64,000 nt of DNA from Escherichia coli (GCF_024502345.1 NZ_JALDNN010000001.1), one strand, 5' to 3'; positions 6,845 to 64,000 are shown, counted from the first letter of the stretch. Notes: a model not told the origin generated them from the sequence alone. Translations and numbers: made by a program.

Positions 6845-6921
<77 letters not shown>

Positions 6922-6954: not shown

Positions 6955-7031
<77 letters not shown>

Positions 7032-8524: not shown

Positions 8525-8533
8525 TTATGCGTT

Positions 8534-8561: not shown

Positions 8562-8575
8562 AATTCTGAGGTGCT

Positions 8576-11500: not shown

Positions 11501-11516
11501 TTCGCGATCGCAAGGT

Positions 11517-20371: not shown

Positions 20372-20387
20372 TGTGACTACCATCACT
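20372..20387. promoter_or_regulatory. CRP-like site in the fucPIKUR / fucAO divergent control region
   Basis: TGTGA-ctacca-TCACt, one mismatch to TGTGA-N6-TCACA. Confidence 0.35.
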
Positions 20388-21377: not shown

Positions 21378-21401
21378 TTTCGTAAAGCAACAAGGAGAAG
21401 G

Positions 21402-43731: not shown

Positions 43732-44523
43732 ATGAATCAAATCGACCGTTTGCTCACTATTATGCAGCGCCTGCGCGATCCGGAAAACGGCTGCCCGTGG
43801 GATAAAGAGCAGACATTTGCCACCATTGCGCCTTACACCCTTGAAGAAACCTACGAAGTGCTGGACGCCATCGCCCGTGAAGATTTTGACGATCTTCGCG
43901 GTGAACTGGGCGATCTGCTATTCCAGGTGGTGTTTTACGCGCAAATGGCTCAGGAAGAAGGGCGCTTTGACTTTAATGATATTTGCGCTGCTATTAGCGA
44001 TAAATTAGAGCGTCGCCATCCGCATGTTTTTGCTGATAGTTCTGCCGAAAACAGTAGTGAAGTGCTTGCCCGTTGGGAGCAAATCAAAACCGAAGAGCGC
44101 GCGCAGAAAGCGCAGCATTCGGCGCTGGACGATATTCCTCGTAGTTTACCGGCTTTAATGCGTGCGCAAAAAATCCAGAAACGTTGCGCCAACGTTGGCT
44201 TCGATTGGACGACGCTTGGTCCGGTAGTCGATAAAGTCTACGAAGAGATCGACGAGGTGATGTACGAAGCGCGGCAGGCTGTTGTCGACCAGGCTAAACT
44301 GGAGGAGGAAATGGGGGACCTGCTGTTTGCCACGGTCAATCTGGCTCGTCATTTAGGGACAAAAGCGGAAATCGCATTGCAAAAAGCGAACGAAAAATTT
44401 GAGCGTCGTTTTCGCGAAGTGGAGCGTATTGTTGCCGCGCGTGGACTGGAAATGACAGGTGTTGACCTCGAAACAATGGAAGAAGTCTGGCAACAGGTAA
44501 AACGGCAGGAAATTGATCTCTAA
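43732..44523 (+). CDS. mazG: Nucleoside triphosphate pyrophosphohydrolase MazG (263 aa)
   Basis: 263-aa ORF with tandem MazG domains. Confidence 0.92.
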   Translation: MNQIDRLLTIMQRLRDPENGCPWDKEQTFATIAPYTLEETYEVLDAIAREDFDDLRGELGDLLFQVVFYAQMAQEEGRFDFNDICAAISDKLERRHPHVFADSSAENSSEVLARWEQIKTEERAQKAQHSALDDIPRSLPALMRAQKIQKRCANVGFDWTTLGPVVDKVYEEIDEVMYEARQAVVDQAKLEEEMGDLLFATVNLARHLGTKAEIALQKANEKFERRFREVERIVAARGLEMTGVDLETMEEVWQQVKRQEIDL

Positions 44524-44735
44524 GGGAATTACGCGGTCAAGCGCCATTTGTGTCATTTTTTAAATGACAAGCGCTTGATTTGCGTCAAAAACATTTACCC
44601 CAAAGGGGCTATTTTCTCACTCCTGATTTCAATAGTGCGCTGGCGAAGAGGAGGGATAATGAAAGTTTGTGGCACAGGTCATGTTCGGGTATACTGCTTT
44701 CCCGTCCTGGTTATTCCATCGTCTTTTCAACCTAA

Positions 44736-46388
<1,653 letters not shown>

Positions 46389-46460
46389 GTAAAAAAGTTA
46401 GAACGGCAACGCGTACCCTGGGTACGCGTTGTTTGTCTGGAGTTTCAGTTTAACTAGTGA

Positions 46461-47774
<1,314 letters not shown>

Positions 47775-47796
47775 GACTGACTTTATCTGATTTAAA

Positions 47797-47824
47797 AATG
47801 CCAGCCTCCGGGCTGGCATTTTTT
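47797..47824 (+). terminator. Rho-independent terminator of eno
   Basis: 10-bp stem aatgccagcc/ggctggcatt followed by a T-run. Confidence 0.8.
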
Positions 47825-47833
47825 ATGGTTGAG

Positions 47834-48706
47834 TTACCAGCGGCCGGATGCGCCGCCACCTCCAGAAGAACCGCCACCGCCGCTAAATCCGCCGCCACTT
47901 GAGCCTCCACCGGAACCGCTGTTATCTGAATGATAACTTTTACCTGATGCTCTTTTCTGAAGTACACATAAACAGGTAAAGACCATAAATATGGTGAAAG
48001 TAAAAAAGAAGGAAAATACAGCAATGGAAAAAATTTTATCGGAGAACAGGAATAAATCTAAAAGATAGATTGCTGAAATATAGACTCCACTTTTACATGC
48101 GCGACAAAAATTACTGCCTTGATGAAAAAACCAGAAAGGGAAGAACATCACTGCAAATACCCAAAAAATAGCAAAGTAATAATGATCACTGGAAGACGCT
48201 GATTCACTTTCTGAAGGATTAGTCGGATATTGGTGTTGTGAAGTGAGTTGGTTATTCAAAGCGTTTATAGCTAGCTCTAATCCCTGAGCAAATTTTTGTT
48301 GTTTAAATGCGGGTATCATGTTGCTACGGATGATATCTCCAGCCAGAGCATCGGTTACCTTTTCTTCCAGCCCATAACCTACCTGGATGCGGACAGTACG
48401 ATCTGACCAGGCAACAATGATCAGTATCCCATCATTACGTTTGGCATCTCCTAAACGCCAATTGTCAAAAACTCTTGTAGCATATTGTTCAATTGTCTCG
48501 TCTTTGGTTGTGGGAACAATTAATACAGCAATTTGCACTTGGGTATTATTGAAAATAGATTCTAACTTGTGCGTCAGTTCTTTCTTTTCTTGTGAGTTTA
48601 AGCTACTCGTAAGATCCGTAACTTGTTGCTGTAATTGTGGGACAATAGTTGGTTGGGCTGCAACAAAGGAACATACGAAAGTGAACATTAGTATGAAATA
48701 GCGCAT
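47834..48706 (-). CDS. ygcG: TPM-domain protein YgcG with signal peptide and Gly-rich C-terminus (290 aa)
   Basis: ORF 47834..48775; start set at [18 protein letters not shown]; C-terminal [16 protein letters not shown] tail. Confidence 0.8.
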
Positions 48707-48998
48707 TATAAATTTCTCATTAAATCTGGATAAATAAATTGACGGCGGCATCGGTAATTTTAGATTCGTTATCATTAAAAACTAATACAGAAAAAATAAA
48801 TATAATTTTGGTGAATGTTTTGACATGATTAAATCCATTTTCTTTATTTTCTTCTGACATAATACGTTACTCCCTTTAATTATTAACGATATGTTTCGCA
48901 TTTTTCTTTAAATCTGCCTGTAACAGAATGTTAATAAGACATGATTGTTGTGGCAGGATCTGCAATAATTAACAATTATCCACTTCACAGAGAATGCT

Positions 48999-49670
48999 AT
49001 GCAGTACCCGATTAACGAGATGTTCCAGACCCTGCAAGGTGAGGGTTACTTTACCGGCGTCCCCGCCATTTTTATTCGTTTACAGGGATGCCCGGTTGGC
49101 TGTGCCTGGTGCGACACCAAACACACCTGGGAAAAGCTTGAGGATCGGGAAGTCTCCCTTTTCAGCATTCTGGCGAAGACCAAAGAGAGTGATAAGTGGG
49201 GGGCGGCGAGCAGTGAAGACTTGTTGGCTGTCATTAGTCGCCAGGGATACACCGCGCGGCATGTGGTGATTACGGGTGGTGAGCCTTGCATTCATGATTT
49301 GCTACCACTGACTGATCTGCTCGAAAAGAACGGTTTTAGCTGCCAGATCGAAACCAGTGGTACTCATGAGGTACGCTGCACACCGAATACCTGGGTTACC
49401 GTATCACCAAAGCTGAACATGCGCGGCGGCTATGAAGTGTTGTCACAGGCACTGGAGCGAGCCAACGAAATCAAGCATCCAGTGGGGCGCGTACGTGATA
49501 TTGAAGCACTGGATGAACTACTGGCAACGCTGACCGATGATAAACCGCGAGTCATTGCACTGCAGCCGATTAGCCAAAAGGATGATGCCACACGTTTGTG
49601 CATTGAAACCTGCATTGCGCGTAATTGGCGTTTGTCGATGCAAACACATAAATATCTAAATATTGCCTGA
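48999..49670 (+). CDS. queE: 7-carboxy-7-deazaguanine synthase QueE (YgcF, radical SAM, 223 aa)
   Basis: 223-aa ORF with radical-SAM cysteine motif CPVGCAWCDT. Confidence 0.9.
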   Translation: MQYPINEMFQTLQGEGYFTGVPAIFIRLQGCPVGCAWCDTKHTWEKLEDREVSLFSILAKTKESDKWGAASSEDLLAVISRQGYTARHVVITGGEPCIHDLLPLTDLLEKNGFSCQIETSGTHEVRCTPNTWVTVSPKLNMRGGYEVLSQALERANEIKHPVGRVRDIEALDELLATLTDDKPRVIALQPISQKDDATRLCIETCIARNWRLSMQTHKYLNIA

Positions 49671-49689
49671 TTAAACATTTATAAGCGTT

Positions 49690-50009
49690 ATAAATGGGTG
49701 GAACCTGTAAAGACTTCTACTCATTTATATTGTTTGTCGCCTCTGAAAACTCCTCCATTTTACCCATCCAGGGCTAATCATTAGCATTCTCTACAAATTC
49801 TGTGGCATTAATTTTTCGCTGGAGTGAAAATTATTGCGGTAAAGTTTGGTAGATTTTAGTTTGTATAGAGTTATTTTAAATATTTACCTTTTTAATCAAT
49901 GGATTAAGTGCTCTTTAACATAATGGATGTGTTGTTTGTGTGATACTATAAAGTTGGTAGATTGTGACTGGCTTAAAAAATCATTAATTAATAATAGGTT
50001 ATGTTTAGA
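49690..50009 (+). promoter_or_regulatory. AT-rich CRISPR leader
   Basis: AT-rich non-coding stretch directly abutting the first repeat, on the side opposite the degenerate terminal repeat. Confidence 0.6.
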
Positions 50010-50832
50010 GTGTTCCCCGCGCCAGCGGGGATAAACCGCGCGATTTGTTAGCGCCCGTTGCGCCTGGTGGGTGTTCCCCGCGCCAGCGGGGATAAACCGC
50101 GCGAGTTCGTGCGCATGGGGCGCATTTTTGGCGTGTTCCCCGCGCCAGCGGGGATAAACCGCGGCGTTCATGCCCTCCAGCACTGTTACGCGGGTGTTCC
50201 CCGCGCCAGCGGGGATAAACCGTAGTCAAGCGGTAATTCATCGCCTGCAGATCCGAGTTCCCCGCGCCAGCGGGGATAAACCGGCTAATTTACGTAATTT
50301 ACGTGCTATTGCACTGAGTTCCCCGCGCCAGCGGGGATAAACCGTGGGTCATGCCGGTGATCGCCTGCCCGTCGTGGAGTTCCCCGCGCCAGCGGGGATA
50401 AACCATCACCACCGCTTGTCATAAAATTAGCGTCATAGAGTTCCCCGCGCCAGCGGGGATAAACCGGGGAGTGGCACTTCTGGGGTAGCGGCGGCCCTGA
50501 GTTCCCCGCGCCAGCGGGGATAAACCGTCAACGCGCTCAGACGTTGCGTGAGTGAACCAGAGTTCCCCGCGCCAGCGGGGATAAACCGAAATATCCAGGG
50601 CTGGGCTGGAGGCAGACGGCGAGTTCCCCGCGCCAGCGGGGATAAACCGGCGTTGATGTTCTTGCGGGTGTTGCAAATATTGAGTTCCCCGCGCCAGCGG
50701 GGATAAACCGTTTCAGCAGTTCAGCGTAACACCGACGGTCACGAGTTCCCCGCGCCAGCGGGGATAAACCGCCCGGAATGCATTCTGAAGGTTTGCTGTA
50801 TATGAGTTCCCCGCGCCAGCGGGGATAAACCA
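50010..50832 (+). CRISPR. Type I-E CRISPR array: 14 repeats of 29 bp, 13 spacers (32-33 bp)
   Basis: Repeat GAGTTCCCCGCGCCAGCGGGGATAAACCG at strict 61-62 bp periodicity from 50010 to 50804; the first 3 repeats carry a GTG variant, and repeats 7 and 14 end in A. Confidence 0.97.
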
Positions 50833-51286
50833 CCATATAACCCGTTATCTCTTTCTCAAGTTTTTATATTAGCAGTACTTGTAATAAGCAACATATCCAC
50901 GTAACACCTCATGTTCAAAATAGTTCTCCATGCCAGAGAGGTTCACAATTATCGATACAAAAAATTAAATTTAATCAAAGTGTTATTTGTATGACTCTTA
51001 AATCGTTAAGAAATTTTAATCTATTATTTTTTTAATATTGAATTAATGCCTGTTAATTTTTTCTTTAGAATAACAGTATATTTTTTAAGCTTGTTATTCA
51101 TTGGTTAAGTAATAAATCTGGAAGTTTGTCTTTGTTTTGAGGCTAATGAGTGGTTTTACATAACCGCCTCTATACGCTGTTGATGAATAGTTCTTATGAA
51201 TAAAGATATCCAGTTCATACTTTAAGTGAAAATTGATAAAGTGCGATTCGTATTGTCTTTAATTCTAAAGACATCGAGTGTAGTTA

Positions 51287-51425
51287 ATATTCCTTGTAAA
51301 AACAGGGATAAACCGAACTAGTTAAAGTTTTTATTATGTTCCCTGCATCAGCGGGGATAAACCGGACTTGTTATCATTTTTTAAGTTGTCGAACTTATGT
51401 TCCCCGCGTCAGCGGGGATAACCAT
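51287..51425 (+). CRISPR. Degenerate CRISPR remnant (about 3 diverged repeats)
   Basis: ATGTTCCCTGCATCAGCGGGGATAAACCG and ATGTTCCCCGCGTCAGCGGGGATAACCAT separated by a 32-bp spacer, preceded by a partial ...CAGGGATAAACCG copy. Confidence 0.75.
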
Positions 51426-51437
51426 TTAGGTATGTTC

Positions 51438-51463
51438 AGGCCGGGCAGTTTTCCGCCCGGCCT
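51438..51463. terminator. GC-rich hairpin downstream of ygcE (no clear T-run)
   Basis: 9-bp stem aggccgggc/gcccggcct with an 8-nt loop. Confidence 0.4.
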
Positions 51464-51470
51464 ACCTCAT

Positions 51471-52949
51471 TCACGCATTCGACCAGCTCTGGATCGAATC
51501 CACATTCCCCAATTCCCCATGCATCACTTCATACGATTTTTTCAGGATCACATCAGTATGTTTGGTTAGGTCTTTGAAAATGCCTTTATTCATCGCGTCG
51601 TAGCGTTTGGCATTGCTCTCAATCGGTATAAAGATATCTTTCACGCGAACCATCTTATCAACAGCCGTTGCGTAATCCGGGTATAGCCCCAGACCTACCG
51701 CTGTATTAATCGCTGCTCCCAGACTTGCACAACCGTTAATGGCGTTACGGCGTGCCGGAAGGTTGAACACGTCGGCAAAAATTTGCATAAACAGATCGCT
51801 GTTCGAACCGCCGCCAGTAATGATCACATGCTTCGCAAAGTGATTCATTTCATTACACATATTGTCGTAATTGTTCTTCAGCGTTAGCGCCACGCTTTCC
51901 AATATCGAACGATATATCCATGCGTAATCCATGCTGGAATCAAAGCCGATCATAATCCCGCGTTTGTACGGTTCCCACGGATTGGTCAGCCAGTCCAGCA
52001 CCGTCATCAGCCCATTACAGCCAGGTGGCACACTAGAGGCTTTCTTGTTGAGTAAATCTTCCGGTGAAAGATCCTGCGCCCTGGCATCCTGAATTAACGA
52101 CTCGCCTAACATGTCACGCAGCCAGCTCACCGTCCACATACCTTTGCGAATACCGTAACCTTCATACAGCAATGTTTGCGGAATAGAAGACATAATCGGC
52201 CAGTACGCCACCGGATCTTTCGGCAGTGCTTTGCCGTTCATCATCAATGCGATGTAAGTGCCAAGAGAAATTACCGCAGTTTCATCATCCAGTAATCCGG
52301 CCCCCAGAGCTTCTACCGGTTTATCACTGGTGGTACAAACAACCGGCAGTCCTGCCGGGAAATGTGTCGCCAGTGCGGCTTGTGGTGTGATATGTCCGAG
52401 GACGGTGCCAGGCATTTGCACATCAAACAGCATATGACGGGGGATATTAAACTTATCCATTACCGCAGCATCTTCGCTCCATGCCCAGCTCTTATAATCC
52501 ACCGGCCACTGACCAAAATAGTTGGCGATATTGTCTTTAAACTCGCCGGTTAAGCGATGCGTCAGATAACCCGAAAAAGAGGTGACATACGCCACGTCAG
52601 GATTCGTATGTTCGTAAGGGCGTGTAACGCGTGCATCCTGCCAGCTAATCAACGGCGCAGCTGGCGTGCCGTCGGCTTTCAATAACGCACGGCAGCAACG
52701 GATGGAGCCCAGGCCGATGCCAACAATATCTTCTTTATTCCCGGCAAACTGGCTCATCAAATCGTGACCTGCAAAACATAATGATGCCCATAAATCGTCG
52801 TCAGGATGTTCTGCAGTATCGGCATAAGGCGTGTGCATCGGCTGTAATAAGCCTTTACCTTCGCAAACCACATTACCTTCCAGATCGTACATCACCACTT
52901 TTGTGCTCTGACTTCCGCCATCAATCCCTATGATGTATTTTTTCGACAT
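51471..52949 (-). CDS. ygcE: FGGY-family carbohydrate kinase YgcE (492 aa)
   Basis: 492-aa ORF MSKKYIIGIDGGSQSTKVVMYD... with actin-like ATPase motifs. Confidence 0.85.
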   Translation of the reverse strand: MSKKYIIGIDGGSQSTKVVMYDLEGNVVCEGKGLLQPMHTPYADTAEHPDDDLWASLCFAGHDLMSQFAGNKEDIVGIGLGSIRCCRALLKADGTPAAPLISWQDARVTRPYEHTNPDVAYVTSFSGYLTHRLTGEFKDNIANYFGQWPVDYKSWAWSEDAAVMDKFNIPRHMLFDVQMPGTVLGHITPQAALATHFPAGLPVVCTTSDKPVEALGAGLLDDETAVISLGTYIALMMNGKALPKDPVAYWPIMSSIPQTLLYEGYGIRKGMWTVSWLRDMLGESLIQDARAQDLSPEDLLNKKASSVPPGCNGLMTVLDWLTNPWEPYKRGIMIGFDSSMDYAWIYRSILESVALTLKNNYDNMCNEMNHFAKHVIITGGGSNSDLFMQIFADVFNLPARRNAINGCASLGAAINTAVGLGLYPDYATAVDKMVRVKDIFIPIESNAKRYDAMNKGIFKDLTKHTDVILKKSYEVMHGELGNVDSIQSWSNA

Positions 52950-52975
52950 GATTTTTCTCCTGTAATTTTCCTGGC

Positions 52976-54253
52976 TTACTTGCTGCTAGCCATTGCGGGG
53001 GCGCTATCAGCAGTACGAATTTTTTGGAACAGCAAAAAGGTAAAGACAATCACCATGGCAAGCGCCGCCATTCCCATCAGCCACATATTGCGGTAGGCTT
53101 CTGCTGCGGGCAGGGTGTCTTGCCAGTGGCCGATAATCGGGTAAACGAAGACATCCGGCAGGAATCCAATCACCGAACAAATACCTACCGTGGTGCCCAT
53201 AATGTAAGACGGTGTTCTCGCTTCGCCAGGGCAGGCCCAGTACAGCCCGCGTGAGGCGTAACAGGTGAATCCCAGCAGTAAAATCAGGCCAATCCCCATC
53301 GCGACCGATTGCGGGTTAGAGTTCGTGACGAGCAGGGCAGTTAACGCCAGCAGGTCGAGTACGGAAAGGATTTGGATCACGCGGGTAGGGGATTTCACTT
53401 TACTGTAGGTGGTGATAATGCCGCCAAGTGGGCCGCACAGCGCGCGGAAGATTTTGTTGATCACAATCCCCATGTAGCTCGCTGCCACCAGCGACATGCC
53501 GTACATTTCGGTCAGATAGTTGGTGGAGTAACTCAGAATGGCGTAGATTGTGAAGACACCAAAAATCACCATGCTGCAATACCAGGTGGTGCTGATACGC
53601 AAAACGGCAAGGATGTCGCTAAGCTGGAATGACTGTTTTTCTTCGTTATTGGCACTGCGCAGGTTGTTGTTATCGCTAACAAAAAACCAGCACAGAATCC
53701 CCAACAAGATGTAAACCACACTGTAGATGATAATGACTGTTTTCAGGCTGGCGCTGTCATCCGGTGCAAAGCGAGAAAAGACCCACATGGTAAACACCGC
53801 CAGCGACATTACACCGACGCCGCGCAGCCCTTCCATCCAGCCCATAATTTTCCCTTGCTCACTATGATCGCCCAGCAACGAGGCGGCTTTAATCGACACC
53901 GACCACAGCATTAAAATCGTCGTTATCGCAAAGGCGACCTGAATACAGAGCATTACCCACAGCGGTGGATACGTTGCCATTAACAGACCCAGTAATCCGG
54001 TAATGATCATCGCGGAAGTAATCATTTTGCGGTGTGAAAATTTATCGGCAATAACGCCGCTGGGGGCATAAAGAATAATAGCCGCAATACCAAAGGTACT
54101 CATTATTAAACCTATCTCGGTATTGCTGAATCCCATAAATTTCGCCATGGGAATTTGATAAATATAACGTAAATAAGCCAGGTCAAAACTAACGCCGCCG
54201 CTAAAACTAATTATCGCGAGGGTTATCCAACGGCGATATGAGTTGTGTTGCAT
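52976..54253 (-). CDS. yqcE: MFS transporter YqcE (425 aa)
   Basis: 425-aa 12-TM-like ORF directly upstream of ygcE on the same strand. Confidence 0.8.
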   Translation of the reverse strand: MQHNSYRRWITLAIISFSGGVSFDLAYLRYIYQIPMAKFMGFSNTEIGLIMSTFGIAAIILYAPSGVIADKFSHRKMITSAMIITGLLGLLMATYPPLWVMLCIQVAFAITTILMLWSVSIKAASLLGDHSEQGKIMGWMEGLRGVGVMSLAVFTMWVFSRFAPDDSASLKTVIIIYSVVYILLGILCWFFVSDNNNLRSANNEEKQSFQLSDILAVLRISTTWYCSMVIFGVFTIYAILSYSTNYLTEMYGMSLVAASYMGIVINKIFRALCGPLGGIITTYSKVKSPTRVIQILSVLDLLALTALLVTNSNPQSVAMGIGLILLLGFTCYASRGLYWACPGEARTPSYIMGTTVGICSVIGFLPDVFVYPIIGHWQDTLPAAEAYRNMWLMGMAALAMVIVFTFLLFQKIRTADSAPAMASSK

Positions 54254-54431
54254 ATCGTATTCCCATTTGTAATAGAAAAAAAAAAGAGAAAAGTAAGCCG
54301 CCCTTTCAGGTGGATTACTTTTCTCAGGTCTCTAGTAATTGCAATAAGAAATAACATGGAAAGCAGAGGTGTTGTGTGAGAGTAATCACGCTTCTGCTTT
54401 TTAAAACTATTTGACAATACGAATATCACAC

Positions 54432-54447
54432 TGTGATTACGATCACA
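54432..54447. promoter_or_regulatory. Consensus CRP site in the yqcE / ygcW divergent intergenic region
   Basis: TGTGA-ttacga-TCACA, perfect match to both half-sites. Confidence 0.6.
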
Positions 54448-54498
54448 TTAGCAGTTATGCCGTTATGCTAAAAATTATCTCCAGTTACCAGAGATAAT

Positions 54499-54547
54499 GA
54501 GAAAGGTAACTTCCCTCTCGCGGGGGAAGTTACCTTTCTTTTTTTTT
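54499..54547 (+). terminator. Strong intrinsic-terminator-like hairpin in the ygcW leader (candidate attenuator)
   Basis: Perfect 16-bp stem agaaaggtaacttccc/gggaagttacctttct, loop tctcgcg, then a T9 run; ends 25 bp before the ygcW ATG. Confidence 0.7.
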
Positions 54548-54571
54548 GCCTTACGGAAATTGGAGCTAACT

Positions 54572-55357
54572 ATGTCAATCGAATCTCTCAATGCGTTCTC
54601 AATGGATTTTTTCTCACTGAAAGGTAAAACCGCAATTGTTACCGGTGGGAATAGCGGTTTAGGCCAGGCATTTGCCATGGCGTTGGCCAAAGCTGGCGCA
54701 AATATCTTTATTCCTAGTTTCGTCAAAGATAACGGCGAAACAAAGGAAATGATTGAAAAACAGGGTGTTGAGGTGGACTTCATGCAGGTGGATATCACCG
54801 CAGAAGGCGCGCCGCAGAAGATTATCGCTGCTTGCTGTGAGCGTTTCGGTACAGTTGATATTCTGGTAAACAATGCCGGTATTTGTAAGCTGAATAAGGT
54901 GCTGGACTTCGGTCGTGCCGACTGGGATCCGATGATTGATGTGAACCTGACCGCCGCATTCGAGTTAAGCTATGAAGCGGCAAAAATTATGATCCCGCAG
55001 AAAAGCGGCAAAATTATTAATATCTGTTCATTGTTCTCTTACTTAGGTGGACAATGGTCACCTGCATATTCTGCCACTAAACATGCTCTTGCCGGATTCA
55101 CCAAAGCTTATTGTGATGAACTAGGTCAATATAATATTCAGGTAAATGGTATTGCCCCTGGCTATTATGCAACAGATATTACGCTGGCGACACGCAGTAA
55201 TCCAGAAACCAATCAGCGCGTTCTTGATCATATTCCGGCAAACCGTTGGGGCGATACTCAGGATTTAATGGGCGCAGCTGTATTCCTCGCAAGTCCGGCT
55301 TCAAATTATGTCAATGGGCATTTATTAGTGGTCGATGGTGGTTATTTAGTGCGCTAA
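54572..55357 (+). CDS. ygcW: Short-chain dehydrogenase/reductase YgcW (261 aa)
   Basis: ORF 54497..55357; start set at MSIESLNAF after a GGAG RBS; SDR motif TGGNSGLG. Confidence 0.85.
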   Translation: MSIESLNAFSMDFFSLKGKTAIVTGGNSGLGQAFAMALAKAGANIFIPSFVKDNGETKEMIEKQGVEVDFMQVDITAEGAPQKIIAACCERFGTVDILVNNAGICKLNKVLDFGRADWDPMIDVNLTAAFELSYEAAKIMIPQKSGKIINICSLFSYLGGQWSPAYSATKHALAGFTKAYCDELGQYNIQVNGIAPGYYATDITLATRSNPETNQRVLDHIPANRWGDTQDLMGAAVFLASPASNYVNGHLLVVDGGYLVR

Positions 55358-55426
55358 TCCATAACGGTGGTTTCTGTTTTCTCTTATTAATGATTATTCC
55401 ATTTTTATTATCAGGAAGGAATTACT

Positions 55427-56881
55427 ATGTCTTTATCTCGCGCAGCGATTGTCGACCAACTAAAGGAAATTGTTGGTGCAGATCGCGTAATTACCGATGA
55501 AACAGTATTAAAGAAGAACAGTATTGACCGTTTTCGTAAATTTCCGGATATTCATGGCATTTATACTTTGCCGATTCCGGCAGCGGTCGTAAAACTCGGT
55601 TCCACAGAGCAAGTATCCCGTGTGCTGAATTTTATGAATGCGCACAAAATTAACGGTGTGCCGCGTACCGGTGCTTCCGCCACCGAAGGTGGGCTGGAAA
55701 CTGTTGTAGAAAACTCGGTGGTGCTCGACGGTTCCGCCATGAATCAAATCATTAATATTGATATTGAGAATATGCAGGCGACGGCGCAATGTGGCGTTCC
55801 CCTGGAAGTGCTGGAAAATGCGTTGCGTGAAAAAGGTTACACCACGGGGCATTCTCCGCAGTCAAAGCCGCTGGCGCAGATGGGCGGCCTGGTAGCAACC
55901 CGCAGTATCGGGCAGTTCTCCACACTCTACGGCGCAATCGAAGATATGGTCGTTGGTCTGGAGGCAGTGTTGGCAGATGGCACCGTCACACGCATTAAAA
56001 ACGTGCCACGCCGCGCGGCTGGCCCGGACATTCGTCACATCATCATCGGCAACGAAGGTGCATTGTGCTATATCACTGAAGTAACAGTGAAAATCTTTAA
56101 ATTCACCCCGGAAAACAACCTCTTCTACGGCTATATCCTGGAAGACATGAAAACCGGCTTCAACATCCTGCGTGAAATCATGGTGGAAGGGTATCGTCCG
56201 TCGATCGCTCGTTTGTATGACGCTGAAGATGGCACCCAACACTTCACCCATTTTGCCGACGGTAAATGTGTGCTGATCTTTATGGCTGAAGGCAATCCTC
56301 GCATTGCGAAGGCGACGGGCGAAGGGATTGCGGAAATCGTTGCCCGCTACCCGCAGTGCCAGCGCGTGGACAGCAAACTGATCGAAACCTGGTTTAACAA
56401 CCTGAACTGGGGACCGGATAAAGTGGCTGCCGAACGTGTGCAGATCCTCAAAACCGGCAACATGGGCTTTACCACTGAAGTGTCCGGCTGCTGGAGCTGC
56501 ATCCACGAAATCTACGAAAGCGTTATTAACCGTATTCGTACTGAGTTCCCGCACGCCGACGACATCACCATGCTGGGCGGTCACTCCTCTCATAGCTATC
56601 ATAACGGCACCAACATGTACTTCGTCTACGATTACAACGTCGTTGACTGTAAGCCGGAAGAGGAAATCGACAAGTACCACAATCCGCTCAACAAGATCAT
56701 CTGTGAAGAAACCATTCGCCTCGGCGGTTCGATGGTGCACCACCACGGTATCGGTAAACATCGCGTTCACTGGAGCAAACTGGAACACGGCAGCGCGTGG
56801 GCGTTGCTGGAAGGGCTGAAAAAGCAGTTCGATCCTAATGGCATTATGAATACGGGTACTATCTATCCGATTGAAAAATAA
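55427..56881 (+). CDS. ygcU: FAD-linked oxidoreductase YgcU (GlcD/vanillyl-alcohol-oxidase superfamily, 484 aa)
   Basis: 484-aa ORF with FAD-binding PCMH-type domain features. Confidence 0.8.
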   Translation: MSLSRAAIVDQLKEIVGADRVITDETVLKKNSIDRFRKFPDIHGIYTLPIPAAVVKLGSTEQVSRVLNFMNAHKINGVPRTGASATEGGLETVVENSVVLDGSAMNQIINIDIENMQATAQCGVPLEVLENALREKGYTTGHSPQSKPLAQMGGLVATRSIGQFSTLYGAIEDMVVGLEAVLADGTVTRIKNVPRRAAGPDIRHIIIGNEGALCYITEVTVKIFKFTPENNLFYGYILEDMKTGFNILREIMVEGYRPSIARLYDAEDGTQHFTHFADGKCVLIFMAEGNPRIAKATGEGIAEIVARYPQCQRVDSKLIETWFNNLNWGPDKVAAERVQILKTGNMGFTTEVSGCWSCIHEIYESVINRIRTEFPHADDITMLGGHSSHSYHNGTNMYFVYDYNVVDCKPEEEIDKYHNPLNKIICEETIRLGGSMVHHHGIGKHRVHWSKLEHGSAWALLEGLKKQFDPNGIMNTGTIYPIEK

Positions 56882-56974
56882 TGTGTCAGGCAGCGTTCCG
56901 CGATGACGGGGCGTTGCCTTTTCGGCTTCTCAGGCGAGAAGCCGTTCTTATTACCGGACAATGAAGGGGTAAAG

Positions 56975-58312
56975 ATGAACACTTCACCGGTGCGAATGGA
57001 TGATTTACCGCTTAACCGTTTTCACTGCCGCATTGCTGCGCTCACTTTCGGCGCACACCTGACCGACGGTTATGTTCTCGGCGTCATTGGTTACGCCATT
57101 ATTCAGCTTACGCCCGCCATGCAACTGACGCCGTTTATGGCGGGAATGATCGGCGGCTCGGCGCTCCTTGGTTTGTTTCTTGGCAGCCTGGTTCTTGGGT
57201 GGATCTCCGACCATATTGGTCGGCAAAAAATCTTCACCTTCAGCTTTTTGCTGATTACGCTCGCTTCGTTCTTGCAATTTTTTGCCACCACGCCAGAGCA
57301 TCTTATTGGGCTGCGCATTTTGATCGGCATTGGGCTGGGAGGCGATTACTCAGTTGGTCACACCTTGCTGGCTGAATTTTCCCCGCGCCGCCATCGCGGT
57401 ATTTTGCTGGGCGCATTCAGCGTGGTGTGGACCGTAGGTTATGTGCTGGCAAGTATTGCCGGACATCACTTTATTTCCGAAAACCCGGAGGCCTGGCGCT
57501 GGCTGCTGGCATCGGCAGCTCTGCCCGCATTGTTGATTACGTTATTACGCTGGGGAACGCCAGAATCGCCACGCTGGCTACTGCGCCAGGGGCGTTTTGC
57601 AGAAGCTCACGCTATCGTGCATCGCTATTTTGGTCCCCATGTTTTACTGGGCGATGAAGTGGCAACGGCGACCCATAAACACATCAAAACCTTGTTCTCT
57701 TCGCGCTACTGGCGGCGTACGGCGTTTAACAGCGTCTTCTTTGTCTGCCTCGTAATTCCATGGTTTGTGATTTATACCTGGCTGCCAACTATCGCCCAGA
57801 CTATTGGACTGGAAGATGCGCTGACTGCCAGCCTGATGCTTAATGCGTTGTTAATTGTGGGCGCGCTGCTGGGATTAGTTCTGACGCACCTGCTGGCACA
57901 TCGCAAGTTTTTGCTGGGAAGTTTTTTGCTGCTGGCGGCAACGCTGGTAGTGATGGCCTGTTTGCCTTCCGGCAGTTCATTAACGCTACTGCTTTTTGTT
58001 CTCTTCAGCACCACCATTTCGGCAGTCAGTAATCTGGTGGGCATTTTGCCTGCGGAAAGTTTTCCTACTGACATTCGCTCGCTGGGCGTCGGTTTTGCCA
58101 CCGCCATGAGTCGGTTGGGGGCGGCGGTAAGTACTGGCCTGCTGCCGTGGGTGCTGGCGCAGTGGGGAATGCAAGTTACCTTATTGATCCTGGCGGCAGT
58201 GTTGTTAGTTGGTTTTGTCGTGACCTGGCTATGGGCACCAGAAACCAAAGCACTCCCGCTGGTGGCGGCGGGAAATGTAGGAGGTGCGAATGAACATTCT
58301 GTTAGCGTTTAA
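56975..58312 (+). CDS. ygcS: MFS sugar-porter-like transporter YgcS (445 aa)
   Basis: ORF 56903..58312; start set at MNTSPVRMDDLPLNRF; sugar-porter-like motifs. Confidence 0.8.
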   Translation: MNTSPVRMDDLPLNRFHCRIAALTFGAHLTDGYVLGVIGYAIIQLTPAMQLTPFMAGMIGGSALLGLFLGSLVLGWISDHIGRQKIFTFSFLLITLASFLQFFATTPEHLIGLRILIGIGLGGDYSVGHTLLAEFSPRRHRGILLGAFSVVWTVGYVLASIAGHHFISENPEAWRWLLASAALPALLITLLRWGTPESPRWLLRQGRFAEAHAIVHRYFGPHVLLGDEVATATHKHIKTLFSSRYWRRTAFNSVFFVCLVIPWFVIYTWLPTIAQTIGLEDALTASLMLNALLIVGALLGLVLTHLLAHRKFLLGSFLLLAATLVVMACLPSGSSLTLLLFVLFSTTISAVSNLVGILPAESFPTDIRSLGVGFATAMSRLGAAVSTGLLPWVLAQWGMQVTLLILAAVLLVGFVVTWLWAPETKALPLVAAGNVGGANEHSVSV

Positions 58313-59069
58313 AGCCGAACCGGATGCCGGAATGCTGGCGGAAAAAGAGTGGCAGGCGGCGGCTCAGGGTAATAGCGGACCGGATGTTTCGCTACTGCGA
58401 AGTTTACTCGGTGCTGATGAACAGGCTGCCGCCGCGCTGCTGTTGGCGCAGATAAAAAACGGTACGCCGATGTCTTTAACCGCGTTGAGCATGGGGGATG
58501 AACGGGCGTTACACTGGCTGCGCTATCTCATGGCTCTTGGGTTTGAGGAAGCTGTATTGCTGGAGACGGCGGCAGATCTGCGCTTTGCACCGGAATTTGT
58601 CGCTCGCCATATTGCCGAATGGCAGCGTCAGAATCCGCTGGATCTGATAATTACCGGCTGCCAAAGCAGCGAAGGGCAGAATTGGCAAACGCCATTTTTG
58701 CTGGCGGAAATGCTGGGCTGGCCCTGCTTCACCCAGGTGGAGCGTTTCACTCTCGACGCGCCGTTTATCACCCTCGAACAGCGTACTGAACATGGGTTGC
58801 GTTGTTGCCGGGTTCGCTTGCCTGCGGTGATTGCCGTGCGCCAGTGTGGTGAAGTGGCCTTGCCAGTACCGGGAATGCGCCAGCGAATGGCTGCGGGGAA
58901 AGCGGAAATTATCCGTAAAACTGTTGCTGCCGAATTGCCAGCGATGCAGTGTCTGCAACTGGCAAGAGCAGAGCAACGACGCGGAGCGACGCTGATTGAT
59001 GGGAAAACGGTAGCAGAAAAAGCGCAAAAGCTATGGCAGGACTATTTACGCCAAAGGATGCAGCCATGA
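58290..59069 (+). CDS. ygcR: Electron transfer flavoprotein beta-subunit-like protein YgcR (FixA-like)
   Basis: 259-aa ORF overlapping the ygcS 3' end; ETF-beta-like. Confidence 0.75.
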   Translation: MNILLAFKAEPDAGMLAEKEWQAAAQGNSGPDVSLLRSLLGADEQAAAALLLAQIKNGTPMSLTALSMGDERALHWLRYLMALGFEEAVLLETAADLRFAPEFVARHIAEWQRQNPLDLIITGCQSSEGQNWQTPFLLAEMLGWPCFTQVERFTLDAPFITLEQRTEHGLRCCRVRLPAVIAVRQCGEVALPVPGMRQRMAAGKAEIIRKTVAAELPAMQCLQLARAEQRRGATLIDGKTVAEKAQKLWQDYLRQRMQP

Positions 59070-59926
59070 ATATCGCAATTGTGACAATAAATCAGGAGAA
59101 TGCCGCATTAGCGGGCTGGCTGGCGGCGCAGGATTTCAGCGGTTGTACCCTGGCGCACTGGCAAATAGAACCACAGCCCGTAGTGGTGGAACAGGTGCTG
59201 GATGCGCTGGTGGAACAGTGGAAGCGAACGCCTACGGACGTTGTTCTCTTTCCGCAGGGAACGTTTGGCGATGAACTGTCGACCCGGCTGGCCTGGCGTT
59301 TACATGGTGCAAGCATCTGCCAGGTGACTTCGTTAGATATTCCAACCGTAAGCGTGCGCAAATCCCACTGGGGAAATGCGCTAACGGCGACGCTGCAAAC
59401 AGAAAAACGCCCGCTATGCCTTTCCCTGGCGCGTCAGGCGGGAGCAGAGAAAAACGCCACGTTGCCCTCTGGTATGCAGCAACTGAACATTGTCCCAGGT
59501 GCGCTTCCCGACTGGCTGGTTAGCATAGAGAATCTGAAAAATGTTAGCCGCGACCCATTAGCTGAAGCCAGACGGGTGCTGGTGGTGGGGCAGGGCGGAG
59601 AGGCAGATAACCAGGAAATCGCTATGCTGGCAGAAAAGCTGGGAGCCGAAGTGGGCTACAGTCGGGCGCGAGTGATGAACGGTGGCGTTGATGCTGAAAA
59701 AGTGATTGGTATTTCCGGACATCTGCTGGCACCTGAGGTGTGTATTGTTGTTGGCGCTTCTGGCGCAGCAGCGTTAATGGCGGGCGTACGCAATAGCAAG
59801 TTTGTGGTGGCGATTAATCATGACGCCAGCGCAGCGGTATTTTCACAGGCAGATGTTGGCGTGGTTGATGACTGGAAAGTGGTGCTGGAGGCACTGGTGA
59901 CAAACATTGACGCAGAATGCCAATAA
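59066..59926 (+). CDS. ygcQ: Electron transfer flavoprotein alpha-subunit-like protein YgcQ (FixB-like, 286 aa)
   Basis: ORF 59033..59926; start set at MNIAIVTINQ, overlapping the ygcR stop (ATGA). Confidence 0.75.
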   Translation: MNIAIVTINQENAALAGWLAAQDFSGCTLAHWQIEPQPVVVEQVLDALVEQWKRTPTDVVLFPQGTFGDELSTRLAWRLHGASICQVTSLDIPTVSVRKSHWGNALTATLQTEKRPLCLSLARQAGAEKNATLPSGMQQLNIVPGALPDWLVSIENLKNVSRDPLAEARRVLVVGQGGEADNQEIAMLAEKLGAEVGYSRARVMNGGVDAEKVIGISGHLLAPEVCIVVGASGAAALMAGVRNSKFVVAINHDASAAVFSQADVGVVDDWKVVLEALVTNIDAECQ

Positions 59927-59970
59927 CGTGCTGCCGGATGATCCTGCCTACGGTTCTGGACTGGGGACCT

Positions 59971-60007
59971 GTAGGCCTGATAAGACGCGTTAAGCGTCGC
60001 ATCAGGC
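59971..60007. repeat. REP element between convergent ygcQ and ygcP
   Basis: gtaggcctgataagacgcgttaagcgtcgcatcaggc. Confidence 0.75.
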
Positions 60008-60072
60008 GCTGAAGGTCGGATGTGGCATGCAGCCTACAAATCACACAAATTCAATTCGTTACGATTATCCCG

Positions 60073-60648
60073 TCAAAGCAATTTTTTAGCTAACGTCCAG
60101 ACTCCGGTATTCGTGGTGGAAAGCGCCACGACACCCGCGTTAATCGCATTACGCGCATTTTCTTCATCGCATACCAGCCCGCCAGCAATCAGCGGTTGAC
60201 GGATTTTCTCCGTCACCCAGCCCAGCACTTTGGGCATACAGCCAGGCAGGATCTCAATACAATCCGGATTCGATTGCGCAACTTGCTTATCAATGTTGTG
60301 AAACGAAATTGAATCAACAATAAACAGGCGATGAATACAGAAAAAACCTTCCGCTCTTGCCGCTTTCAGCATTGAGGCTTTGGTACTGATAATTCCGTCC
60401 GCCTCGGTCACCAGTTTCAAAAACTGAATCACGACTTCTTTATTTGACGCGCCTTCCAGCAAATCAACATGAATAAAAGCATATTTCCCGGCGTTCTTAA
60501 TCTTTTTAACGATATTACTGATGGTGCAGATATTGCCGTACAACACGGAAATAAACTGGCATTCAGAGTCGATTGCCAGTTGCAGGCTGGCATTATCTTT
60601 AACGGCAGCAATCACCGGATTCTGGCGGAGCAGGTGTAAGAGGGGCAT
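60073..60648 (-). CDS. ygcP: GlpP-family putative RNA-binding antiterminator YgcP (191 aa)
   Basis: 191-aa ORF recognised as belonging to the glycerol-3-phosphate responsive antiterminator (GlpP) family. Confidence 0.75.
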   Translation of the reverse strand: MPLLHLLRQNPVIAAVKDNASLQLAIDSECQFISVLYGNICTISNIVKKIKNAGKYAFIHVDLLEGASNKEVVIQFLKLVTEADGIISTKASMLKAARAEGFFCIHRLFIVDSISFHNIDKQVAQSNPDCIEILPGCMPKVLGWVTEKIRQPLIAGGLVCDEENARNAINAGVVALSTTNTGVWTLAKKLL

Positions 60649-60664
60649 AAATTATCCTTTTTAC

Positions 60665-60925
60665 TTATCCAAAGCGGTAGGTGATGCCGAATCCGGAAGG
60701 CGGATAGCGCCACTGTTGTAGTGTTTTTTCGTCGCACAGCAAACGGCAGGTGCCACACTCCAGGCAGCCGTGATAATCAACGCGTAAGTCACCTTCCGGT
60801 GTGAGCGAAAAAAGACCAGCCGGACAAGCGTTAATCAACCGTTGTACCGTCTGGCGCTCAACGGAGTCAGCCGGAACAATGTGCGGCGCATCGGCAACGC
60901 GCCAGAGATTACGGGCTACAGACAT
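60665..60925 (-). CDS. ygcO: Ferredoxin-like protein YgcO (FixX-like, 86 aa)
   Basis: Cys-rich short ORF (CPAGLF...CLECGTC); overlaps the ygcN 3' end. Confidence 0.75.
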   Translation of the reverse strand: MSVARNLWRVADAPHIVPADSVERQTVQRLINACPAGLFSLTPEGDLRVDYHGCLECGTCRLLCDEKTLQQWRYPPSGFGITYRFG

Positions 60926-62187
60926 CGAACACTCCTGATAACATCGCCCGCCAGATGCCACAGGCCATGACGACGTAAATGACGCCAGAGTAACTGGCGC
61001 AGCGGTGGAACAGGTTTATCACCCTGATCCCATAAATCGCGGGAAATATCCTGCATTAACGCAGGCCACGTACGGTACCATCCCGGGCGTTGCAAAAGCG
61101 CCGGAACATGCTGATAACGCTGTAGAACATCCCACAGCAGGCTGCGCTCGACGTTGTGATGATAAAGCGGAAACAGATTTTGCGGCTCGCGGTGCTGGCA
61201 GGCGCTTATCAGTGTTTGTGCCGCCGCCTGCGCGCCAGTTAGCGCCGTATCCATGCCGCGCACGGAAATTCCGGTATTGACGCAACTGCGCAACGCATCG
61301 CCTACCAGCAGCCAGCCGTTACCGGCGTATTGCACTGGCATACTGTGCAAGCCACCTTCTGGCACCAGATGCGCACCATACTCCAGTGATTCCGTGTTTT
61401 TGATAAGCGGGCGCACTGCCGGATGCGTTTTAAAGCGAGCCAGCAGCTCGCTTGCCGGAACACGACTTTGCGTAAGGGAAGAGAGCGGGCAAACAATCCC
61501 TAACGAGAGCGTTTGTTGATTAGTATAAAGAAATGCGCCGCCGGGAAAGTCATCACAGATTCCGCCGCTGAACAGCAACGCTGCGCCTTCGTTATTCTCC
61601 AGATGAAAACGTTCTTCAATAGCGGATGTTTCCAGCGACAGCACTTCTTTGATCCCCAACGCCATCGCTTCGCCAGCAGGACGAGTCACTAATCCGTGAC
61701 GTTCAGCCAGGACGCTGTTGGCACCTTCTGCCAGCACCACATAACGGGCGCGGAGAATATCGTCACCACAAATGACACCACACACCCTGCCGTTTTCTTC
61801 ATACAGTGCATTCACCGTCGCTCCGGGGATGCATTCGACACCTTCTTTTTCGGCTTCGGCAACCAGCCACGGATCGAACCGTGCACGTAATACACTCCAG
61901 GATTCACCGCCGGGCTGTAAGCTGGAAAATGTCGTTACGCCATCGGGCGTTAACAGGGAAAGGCTTTCGTGAGTGATGCGTCGTTCAAGAGGCGCGGTCA
62001 GATGAAATTGCGGGAGGAGTTCCGCGAGTGCATGGGTATATAACCGCCCGCCGGAAAGATTTTTGCTGCCGGGGATTTCAGCGCGTTCCAGTAACAAAAC
62101 GGATAAACCCGCTCGCGCGCAGCGTAACGCGCAAGCGGTGCCTGCAATACCGGCACCAATAATAATAATGTCGCAGTCGTCTTCCAT
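60916..62187 (-). CDS. ygcN: FAD-dependent oxidoreductase YgcN (FixC/ETF-QO-like, 423 aa)
   Basis: ORF 60916..62217; start set at MEDDCDIIIIGAGIAG (Rossmann FAD motif). Confidence 0.8.
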   Translation of the reverse strand: MEDDCDIIIIGAGIAGTACALRCARAGLSVLLLERAEIPGSKNLSGGRLYTHALAELLPQFHLTAPLERRITHESLSLLTPDGVTTFSSLQPGGESWSVLRARFDPWLVAEAEKEGVECIPGATVNALYEENGRVCGVICGDDILRARYVVLAEGANSVLAERHGLVTRPAGEAMALGIKEVLSLETSAIEERFHLENNEGAALLFSGGICDDFPGGAFLYTNQQTLSLGIVCPLSSLTQSRVPASELLARFKTHPAVRPLIKNTESLEYGAHLVPEGGLHSMPVQYAGNGWLLVGDALRSCVNTGISVRGMDTALTGAQAAAQTLISACQHREPQNLFPLYHHNVERSLLWDVLQRYQHVPALLQRPGWYRTWPALMQDISRDLWDQGDKPVPPLRQLLWRHLRRHGLWHLAGDVIRSVRCL

Positions 62188-62264
62188 GTCATGCCCCAGA
62201 TATCCAGAACACAACACCCTAACATAGCGTTACTTAAGGGAAATTGACCGCCGACACACTCTTA

Positions 62265-62630
62265 TCATTCGCCGCGATAGATACAACCAGCGGTGCAGGT
62301 TTCTTTTACCATCACCGCACTTAACAGCGGCACAACGGGTTTAACCTGATCCCAAATCCATTTTGCTAAAACTTCGCTGGTCGGGTTTTCCAGGCCTGGA
62401 ATATCATTGAGATAATGGTGATCGAGGCGCTCATAAGTTGGCTTAAACGCTGCTTTCAGTTCAGCGAAATCGATAACCCAGCCCGTATGCGGATCGACTT
62501 CCCCGGTAATTTCCAGTCGCACCATAAAGGAATGCCCGTGCAGGCGACCACATTTATGCCCTTCCGGGACGTGTGGTAAGCGGTGAGCGGCTTCGAAGGT
62601 GAAATCTTTAAATAACGTGGTGGACATCAT
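62265..62630 (-). CDS. queD: 6-carboxy-5,6,7,8-tetrahydropterin synthase QueD (YgcM, 121 aa)
   Basis: ORF 62265..62714; start set at [33 protein letters not shown] (zinc-binding CxxxHGH). Confidence 0.88.
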
Positions 62631-62945
62631 AATTTCTCTACAGGACGATAAAACCGCCGTAGAGTACCGGAAAGGCTGTTTTTTCGCATTATCTAAAACG
62701 ACTTTGTTGCGCAAAATCGCTGATTTATCTTAATGATTGGCTAAATTCATTTGTTTTTCATTAGGTTGGTTAATCTATTTTGTTGTTAAAGACTATTGCT
62801 AAAACAGGTTAGTCGATTTGGTTATTAGTTATCGCTATCCCGTCTTTAATCCACACCGTTCACCCCGTTAACCTTACCTTCTCTTCTGTTTTATGGGCGC
62901 TGACAGGGCGCAGAAACAGCTTTGCTTACTGGAACATAACGACGC

Positions 62946-64000
62946 ATGACGACACAGGTCCCACCTTCCGCGTTGCTTCCGTTGAACCCGGAGCAACTGG
63001 CACGCCTTCAGGCGGCCACGACCGATTTAACTCCCACCCAGCTTGCCTGGGTTTCTGGCTATTTCTGGGGCGTGCTCAATCAGCAGCCTGCTGCGCTTGC
63101 AGCAACGCCAGCGCCAGCCGCAGAAATGCCGGGTATAACTATTATCTCCGCCTCGCAAACCGGCAATGCGCGCCGGGTTGCTGAAGCATTACGTGATGAT
63201 TTATTAGCGGCAAAACTGAACGTTAAGCTGGTGAACGCGGGCGACTATAAATTCAAACAAATCGCCAGCGAAAAACTGCTTATCGTGGTGACGTCAACGC
63301 AAGGAGAAGGGGAACCGCCGGAAGAAGCCGTCGCGCTGCATAAGTTCCTGTTCTCCAAAAAAGCGCCGAAGCTGCAAAACACCGCATTTGCCGTGTTTAG
63401 CCTCGGCGATAGCTCTTATGAATTTTTCTGCCAGTCCGGGAAAGATTTTGACAGCAAGCTGGCGGAACTGGGCGGTGAACGCCTGCTCGACCGTGTCGAT
63501 GCCGACGTTGAATACCAGACCGCTGCCAGCGAGTGGCGCGCTCGCGTGGTTGATGCGCTTAAATCGCGTGCGCCTGTCGCGGCACCTTCGCAATCCGTCG
63601 CTACTGGCGCGGTAAATGAAATCCACACCAGCCCGTACAGCAAAGACTCGCCGCTGGTGGCGAGCCTCTCTGTTAACCAGAAAATTACCGGGCGTAACTC
63701 TGAAAAAGACGTTCGCCATATCGAAATTGACTTAGGTGACTCGGGCCTGCGTTACCAGCCGGGTGACGCGCTGGGCGTCTGGTATCAGAACGATCCGGCA
63801 CTGGTGAAAGAACTTGTCGAACTGCTGTGGCTGAAAGGCGATGAACCTGTCACCGTCGAGGGCAAAACGTTGCCTCTGAACGAAGCGCTACAGTGGCACT
63901 TCGAACTGACCGTCAACACCGCCAATATTGTTGAGAACTATGCCACGCTTACCCGCAGCGAAACGCTGTTGCCGCTGGTGGGCGATAAAGCGAAGTTACA
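62946..64000 (+). CDS. cysJ: Sulfite reductase [NADPH] flavoprotein alpha-component CysJ, N-terminal part (3' end outside the window)
   Basis: ATG at 62946; hand translation [42 protein letters not shown]... stays open to the window edge; absent from the ORF track only because it has no stop in the window. Confidence 0.9.

Follow-up and report, generated by a model that had tools for sequence, protein, structure and literature searches.

How two linked genes of queuosine biosynthesis, queE and queD, came to be parted by more than 12 kb of DNA is the question raised by a 64,000-nucleotide stretch of Escherichia coli (NZ_JALDNN010000001.1; hereafter the window), in which CRISPR arrays and a cluster of ygc genes lie between them. 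An earlier note on this DNA had proposed that the intervening block was inserted or rearranged into an ancestral que locus. We compared the interval with homologous loci of other Enterobacteriaceae, and conclude with considerable confidence that it is accessory DNA filling a conserved soft spot, namely a short terminator-type spacer between two convergent core genes.

The left boundary of the accessory interval is queE (48999-49670, plus strand), which encodes a 7-carboxy-7-deazaguanine synthase of 223 residues. Its product matches the E. coli-type profile TIGR04322 with 369.4 bits (cut-off 200), residues 9-223 corresponding to profile positions 1-215, and the gene is annotated as queE in homologous E. 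coli loci. The right boundary, queD (62265-62630, minus strand), encodes a 6-carboxytetrahydropterin synthase of 121 residues that scores 112 bits with TIGR03367 (cut-off 89.25) and 131.8 bits against 125.5 with TIGR00039. Called mechanically, the open reading frame (ORF) of queD would begin at TTG 62714, further upstream than ATG 62630, the start that agrees with the RefSeq annotation of homologous loci. Both proteins thus lie above the NCBIfam equivalog cut-offs, and the identities given in the earlier note hold, as does its geometry: the two genes are convergent and enclose 12,594 bp (49671-62264) that contain the CRISPR arrays and the ygc cluster. From 44.7 kb onwards the order is pyrG, eno, ygcG (minus), queE (plus), a leader, a 14-repeat array, ~0.45 kb of AT-rich DNA and a decayed 3-repeat array. 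These are followed by ygcE and yqcE (minus), ygcW, ygcU, ygcS, ygcR and ygcQ (plus), ygcP, ygcO and ygcN (minus), queD (minus) and the start of the divergent cysJ (~62949, plus), within which the window ends. All ten ORFs of the ygc cassette are intact, and no further ORFs of note were found in the interval.

QueE was searched against one genome per species (GTDB representatives). From more than 589 hits, the 80 Enterobacteriaceae loci with the best scores, each with flanks of up to 10 kb, were used; the proteins and the CRISPR repeat of the window were mapped onto them, and the loci were then classified. In 40 of the 80 species queE (plus) and queD (minus) are directly adjacent, separated by spacers of 28-184 bp (median 68) that fold into a stable hairpin in 40 of 40 cases. 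The ygc cassette follows queE in the same order and orientation in 17 species, three species (and one cut contig) carry only a type I-E array between the two genes, 17 hold unrelated cargo, and three loci stayed unclassified. As examples of such cargo, members of the Enterobacter cloacae complex have an MFS transporter, an M20 peptidase and an AraC regulator at the site, Kluyvera has a histidine phosphatase, and Enterobacter sp. BIGb0383 combines an MFS_2 transporter with an alpha-L-arabinofuranosidase. Adjacency extends to other families: the outgroups Serratia ficaria (Yersiniaceae) and Dickeya solani (Pectobacteriaceae) show convergent queE and queD with gaps of 63 bp and 39 bp, respectively, followed by cysJIH, and the genome AP025685.1 reads relA-mazG-pyrG-eno-queE-queD-cysJIH with queE and queD again convergent. 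Erwinia sp. E602 is the exception, with no queD within 5 kb. Because the outgroups Serratia and Dickeya share it, the adjacency of queE and queD is ancestral in Enterobacterales; the linkage of the two genes is not due to chance and is conserved across the order. In most related bacteria queE and queD lie side by side, and they make good boundaries for the accessory segment. The synteny comparison that the earlier note had suggested as a check favours insertion: adjacency is widespread, the ygc genes are patchy, and the same cassette occurs elsewhere.

The loci further reveal that the block is composite. Genera with the ygc genes and no array (Citrobacter, Superficieibacter, Cedecea, Raoultella, Klebsiella spallanzanii and others) have a hairpin spacer of 40-124 bp between queE and ygcE, and in genera with an array and no ygc genes (Salmonella, Phytobacter, Pseudocitrobacter) the leader adjoins queE in the same orientation as in the window. 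The Salmonella locus, for example, consists of eno, queE, an 18-repeat array, a Lactamase_B-type ORF, queD and cysJ, with the ygc genes absent. Since both kinds of genera exist, arrays and cassette are to be counted as two separate, independent fillings. The ancestral order would have been (eno)-queE-queD-cysJIH, with only a hairpin spacer between the convergent que genes. One filling in the Escherichia lineage would then be CRISPR-II, with its leader and its orphan type I-E arrays immediately 3' of queE, and the other a self-contained cassette of ten ygc genes with fixed internal order.

The cassette is also found away from this site. Relatives of YgcU with 71-84% identity occur well outside Enterobacterales. 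In Limnobaculum parvum (Budviciaceae) all ten genes, arranged and oriented as in the window, are flanked by radA and an ADH/LysR pair, Serratia fonticola has nine of them in the same order beside metH with ygcP shifted to the front, one Pantoea has a five-gene half cassette and Photobacterium a rearranged version. The ygc genes form a portable cassette that is probably self-regulated through YgcP. Comparison within Enterobacteriaceae indicates lateral exchange, because the Citrobacter youngae cassette is closer to that of K. spallanzanii (89-95% DNA identity, gene by gene) than to those of its congeners Citrobacter Cu233 and MGH106 (only 67-85%). At pyrG, eno and queE, Cu233 and MGH106 are 90-97% identical to C. 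youngae. We relied on this per-gene identity table, as a neighbour-joining (NJ) tree of the cassette contained some suspicious long branches stemming from tblastn hit boundaries and a pseudogene. Likewise, a synonymous-site clock from pyrG, eno and queE was set aside because the codons of these highly expressed genes are constrained, and only internal contrasts were used. On an NJ tree of pyrG, eno and queE, the presence of the ygc genes requires at least 10 changes by Fitch parsimony, with absence at the root, and close species differ in state (Citrobacter Cu233 versus wls619; C. youngae versus C. werkmanii).

Several points limit this reading and speak against an insertion that was recent or mediated by an element. 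The block has a GC content of 0.501 compared with 0.508 for the window, and the cassette genes fall within or near the range of 22 flanking core ORFs for GC (0.45-0.56 per gene), for GC at third codon positions (GC3; 0.42-0.61 versus 0.47-0.645) and for a codon index (0.65-0.77 versus 0.65-0.81). The GC3 of ygcW (0.42) is the sole marginally low value, and AT-richness is confined to ygcG, which is not part of the interval, and to the leader and spacer DNA of the CRISPR region. With such native composition, composition cannot serve as evidence for a foreign origin. Every Pfam family matched by a cassette protein has a role in metabolism, transport or regulation, and no integrase or transposase domain is among them; no tRNA or tmRNA was found in 44000-64000, and no direct or inverted repeats at the block boundaries. 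Furthermore, nearly all complete E. coli genomes carry the block (at least 5060 of the 5425, with at least 80% of the query covered), and synonymous sites of the Escherichia cassette are near saturation against other genera, which places the acquisition far back and leaves neither donor nor mechanism readable from the sequence. The 80 loci are not an unbiased sample and do not include E. fergusonii, parsimony was run on a rough three-gene NJ tree of the species, and identical junctions across genera would also fit a single early insertion followed by many losses. The earlier note had regarded native composition combined with phylogenies congruent with core genes as speaking against its proposal. 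The composition is indeed indistinguishable, while the phylogeny of the cassette is incongruent with the core genes, so only one half of that combination was found. Taken together with its occurrence in E. albertii and E. whittamii, the ygc block in Escherichia is an old resident, accessory at the family level and near-core at the species level.

Within E. coli the locus continues to turn over at a low rate. The left flank of the window (24000-48999) is 99.6% identical to many B1-type strains, and the window as a whole is a recombination mosaic, ~100% identical to strain UTAK-18 over 44.5-55.5 kb and 96.4-99% from ygcU through cysJ; over the whole cassette, identity does not exceed 98.5% in any complete E. 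coli genome. Strain SC407 carries a secondary deletion that left a 3' stump of ygcE next to queD. In ST131-type strains (for example EC32, locus 2757-9235), the arrays between queE and ygcE are replaced by the five-gene scr sucrose phosphotransferase regulon (LacI-type regulator, sucrose-6-P hydrolase, EIIBC, porin and kinase), and one other strain has IS1397 between ygcQ and ygcP (locus 20220-21568). Because tRNA genes, integrases and att-type repeats are lacking and the cargo is native, turnover at the site looks recombination-driven and not element-driven. We infer that the cassette was gained, lost and swapped among Enterobacteriaceae most likely by homologous recombination through the eno/queE and queD/cysJ flanks; an element-encoded mechanism is not apparent. 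A single form of the right junction (queD, a short spacer and ygcN-ygcO-ygcP) recurs in Citrobacter-, Raoultella- and Cedecea-like loci, which fits one original insertion with presence and absence alleles later swapped, presumably through recombination in the flanks. Pseudogenes of the cassette are common in annotated strains (E. coli E2865, JNEC-KY179, UTAK-18) and include an ygcE frameshift together with an internal stop in ygcW, an internal stop in ygcU and a partial yqcE. In some lineages, selection on the cassette therefore seems to be relaxed.

Could the cassette have occupied the site already in the common ancestor of Enterobacteriaceae, the empty sites having arisen later through recurrent deletions or because an empty allele took its place? 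The window would then represent the family's older state and not an insertion specific to one lineage. Its position, orientation and queD-ygcN junction are shared by Escherichia, Citrobacter, Raoultella/Klebsiella and Cedecea-type loci, and its native composition, its saturated synonymous sites against other genera, the deletion caught in SC407 and the pseudogenes in several E. coli strains all speak for such an early presence. However, outgroup families are cleanly adjacent with absence at the parsimony root, very close species pairs differ in state, empty sites are tidy hairpin spacers with no ygc remnants, and the cassette does not follow the core genes in phylogeny. We therefore regard early presence as unlikely, although it retains an appreciable share of our credence; if true, it would alter timing only, and the cassette would still have entered an ancestrally adjacent queE/queD pair. 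The other way of parting the two genes, a rearrangement by inversion or translocation in place of inserted DNA, is hardly credible. Nothing specific supports it, the genes of the block are absent from the neighbourhood in empty-site genomes, and the block is found as a unit elsewhere in other families. Moreover, neither order nor orientation of the flanks pyrG-eno-(ygcG)-queE and queD-cysJ-cysI changes from one locus to another, whether a block is there or not. Of the two routes offered in the earlier note, insertion is hence supported by synteny, and rearrangement is not, given collinear flanks everywhere.

A further alternative concerns the placement of the cassette beside queD, which might itself be under selection: ygcN, ygcO and ygcP, and with the last the regulator YgcP, would depend on the queD promoter, coupling the expression of a queuosine gene to the ygc pathway. 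The stop codon of queD (62267-62265) and the ATG of ygcN (62187-62185) delimit a same-strand spacer of 77 nt (62188-62264, minus strand), in agreement with the distance reported earlier. By scanning, folding and alignment, this spacer has a hairpin just ahead of the ygcN start; a terminator consensus scan of it found none, its fold does no better than shuffled controls (z = -0.56 and -0.92), and a good match to sigma-70 is lacking in the 77 nt. The spacer sequence is conserved across three genera, recurring in Citrobacter-like and Raoultella-like loci, and the genes behind it are tightly packed, ygcN and ygcO overlapping by 10 nt and ygcO and ygcP being 16 nt apart. As no terminator follows queD, read-through into ygcNOP, which the earlier note had raised, is plausible and consistent with the DNA sequence: the insertion would have left queD without a terminator, and queD transcripts probably enter these genes. 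Against a selected dependence on queD stand the cassettes of Limnobaculum and Serratia fonticola, which work without a que neighbour, and the Cedecea-like locus, the sole one of the three types with an extra 29-nt canonical terminator directly after queD, which shows the form expected at this position and missing in the window. Among the papers searched, none links queD and ygcN or names both. Selected placement is thus doubtful in our view. We consider slightly less probable still a more far-reaching proposal, in which the convergent spacer would be a family-wide capture site where homologous recombination through the flanks repeatedly inserts, exchanges and deletes whole modules, including CRISPR arrays without cas genes, and in which the conserved junction lacking a terminator would in addition put ygcNOP under the queD promoter. 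This would wire an exchanged catabolic pathway to a tRNA-modification gene, because ygcP encodes an antiterminator that would open the conserved leader terminator before ygcWUSRQ. We thus retain the reading of the interval as accessory DNA in a conserved soft spot, with read-through from queD as a plausible consequence of the insertion.

The cassette itself begins with ygcE (51471-52949, minus strand), encoding an FGGY-family carbohydrate kinase (PF00370, PF02782), and yqcE (52976-54253, minus), encoding an MFS transporter (PF07690). The five plus-strand genes encode an SDR oxidoreductase (ygcW, 54572-55357; PF13561, PF00106), an FAD-linked oxidase resembling GlcD and alkyl-DHAP synthase (ygcU, 55427-56881; PF01565, PF02913), an MFS sugar-type transporter (ygcS, 56903-58312; PF00083) and the beta (FixA-like) and alpha (FixB-like) subunits of an electron transfer flavoprotein (ETF; ygcR, 58290-59069, PF01012; ygcQ, 59066-59926, PF00766). 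On the minus strand, ygcP (60073-60648) encodes an antiterminator of the GlpP family, the glycerol-3-phosphate-responsive type (PF04309, 209 bits). It is preceded by ygcO (60665-60925) for a FixX-like ferredoxin-family protein of 86 residues, which matched no Pfam family, scored 82.7 bits with NF011993 (below the cut-off) and is a ferredoxin family protein in RefSeq. The last gene, ygcN (60916-62187), encodes a FAD oxidoreductase similar to FixC and ETF-QO (PF01266, PF21162; NF007450 with 375 bits, below the cut-off). Specific substrates such as those of a xylulokinase or a glycolate oxidase were rejected for the ygc proteins, as no NCBIfam equivalog cut-off was passed, and assignments are kept at the level of families, which point to a sugar-type catabolic role. 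Among the papers searched, none dealt with the function of the cassette and none contained three or more ygc gene names. Nothing was found that ties the cassette to queuosine chemistry, and in other families it occurs without que neighbours.

Its genes differ in their rates of divergence. The ETF/Fix-like genes ygcR/ygcQ (58290-59926) and ygcO/ygcN (60665-62187) diverge much faster than the others: in comparisons with Citrobacter their products reach 62-75% identity, whereas YgcE, YqcE, YgcW, YgcU and YgcP reach 90-96%. Within Escherichia the corresponding values are 86-93% and 97-100%. YgcP, although encoded between them, stays at 96%. Outside Enterobacteriaceae, the FGGY kinase of the cassettes is only 46-49% identical to YgcE of the window, against 84% for YgcU and 74-80% for YqcE, and it may have been replaced or changed in specificity there.

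The divergent spacer between yqcE and ygcW contains an apparent intrinsic terminator in the ygcW leader (54499-54547, plus strand), formed by a perfect stem of 19 bp followed by nine T residues and situated 25 nt upstream of ygcW. It is kept in all 17 cassettes compared, including those of Serratia fonticola, Pantoea, Limnobaculum and Photobacterium, and thus travels with the cassette. Its stem shows compensatory changes, such as G-C to A-U in five of the 17 sequences. No Rfam family was hit anywhere in 47.5-64 kb (E <= 0.1), and hence none by this terminator. Because the cassette encodes a GlpP-family antiterminator, the terminator is likely the target of YgcP and would act as a switch for ygcWUSRQ.

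The CRISPR part of the interval begins directly behind queE. On inspection of the sequence, the 3' flank of queE and an AT-rich CRISPR leader occupy 49671-50009 (plus strand), the end of the leader adjoining the first repeat. A terminator consensus scan 3' of queE returned nothing; folding showed an imperfect AT-rich hairpin with a T-rich tail, 10-67 nt past the queE stop, which the scan had missed (3' flank fold of -22.5 kcal/mol). The repeat-proximal part of the leader is conserved in E. albertii, Phytobacter, Pseudocitrobacter and UBA3516. The first array, of the CRISPR2.2 type, spans ~50010-50832 (plus strand) and comprises 14 type I-E repeats of 29 nt and 13 spacers with a period of 61 nt, directed away from queE. 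The second, a degenerate array of the CRISPR2.3 type (~51287-51425, plus strand), has three decayed repeats and lies ~0.45 kb past the first. Just beyond the ygcE stop follows a GC hairpin, GGCCGGGCAGTTTTCCGCCCGGCC (51440-51463), the counterpart of the hairpin spacer between queE and ygcE in array-less genera. In E. coli, CRISPR2.2 and CRISPR2.3 have been described as arrays 0.5 kb apart between ygcE and ygcF (PMC3903273), and the core-gene interval 'cysJ-ygcF' as the CRISPR2 site (PMC2886076). The 29-nt type I-E repeats, the 61-nt period, the leader, the position between ygcE and ygcF (queE) and the spacing of ~0.5 kb assign the arrays of the window to CRISPR-II. 'Both CRISPR arrays' of the earlier note are accordingly the two CRISPR-II arrays; CRISPR-I, the array linked to cas genes, is located past cysJIH and is not part of the window, and cas3/casA are found beyond cysH in related E. 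coli loci. The spacer content of the window is strain-specific.

Further observations concern the surroundings of queE and the cargo found beside it. An ygcW-like SDR is the sole cargo between queE and queD in K. oxytoca (locus 10846-11646) and Kosakonia pseudosacchari (3247-4059). Its identity of 73-75% falls too far short of the 83-100% seen among true ygcW orthologues for it to be called a remnant of the cassette; a divergent cassette may have left it behind, or it may be a paralogue with no such connection. The gap between eno and queE also varies among genera, from ~135 bp to ~5 kb with differing content, and forms a second plastic junction beside queE. In the window it holds the ygcG-yqcG region (47834-48998), where ygcG stands out from the adjoining genes as strongly AT-rich (GC 0.40, GC3 0.34). 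K. spallanzanii, which carries the ygc cassette as well, has a 22-repeat array built on the type I-E repeat of the window between eno and queE, hence on the opposite side of queE (locus 6154-7435).

All parts of the interval are already annotated on the E. coli map and in the CRISPR literature; this is a known locus with ordinary genome plasticity, and the consequences go little beyond bookkeeping. The comparison sets clean limits for the E. coli CRISPR-II/ygc interval, at the queE stop (49670) and the queD stop (62265), and explains the variable content that CRISPR typing schemes meet between ygcF/queE and cysJ. Annotation by neighbourhood should not pass a 'que' context to the ygc genes. The queD-ygcN junction, in turn, offers a concrete case for asking if the promoter of a core gene feeds an acquired operon.

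With respect to known systems, queuosine precursor genes are reportedly clustered, for instance in the queCDEF operon of Bacillus subtilis. As there, queD and queE are neighbours in the ancestral Enterobacterales order, and queF is also present in the window (28222-29070, minus strand; TIGR03138, 434 bits, cut-off 293), ~20 kb left of queE; queD, queE and queF, three of the four preQ1-pathway genes, all lie inside 34.4 kb. Unlike the B. subtilis operon, queD and queE of Enterobacterales are convergent with a hairpin spacer, thus linked but not co-transcribed, and queC is not in the window. With classical genomic islands, which are tRNA-associated, integrase-bearing and of atypical composition, the block shares a patchy phylogenetic distribution and sharp core-gene boundaries. 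We rejected a classification as such an island, since mobility genes, tRNA, boundary repeats and atypical composition are all lacking. The block is instead an old and composite filling of a hotspot, which resembles the core-gene-interval plasticity hotspots of Enterobacteriaceae in that one interval is either empty or filled by ygc, CRISPR, scr, peptidase or arabinofuranosidase modules; the queE-queD interval differs from them in its native composition and its lack of tRNA, integrase and att-type repeats.

The arrays share with E. coli CRISPR-II as published the repeat, the leader on the queE/ygcF side, the two-array spacing and the position between ygcE and ygcF (PMC3903273). Salmonella CRISPR2, whose published layout agrees with the Salmonella locus examined here (PMC3356390), resembles the window in the side of queE on which its array lies and in the orientation of that array; it differs in what comes after the array, a metallo-hydrolase ORF and then queD, and in lacking the ygc cassette. 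The order, orientation and spacing of the whole region, eno-ygcG-queE(ygcF)-CRISPR-II-ygcE to ygcN-queD(ygcM)-cysJIH, match those of E. coli K-12 and of RefSeq-annotated E. coli, from which the allele of the window differs as a recombination mosaic with its own, strain-specific array spacers.

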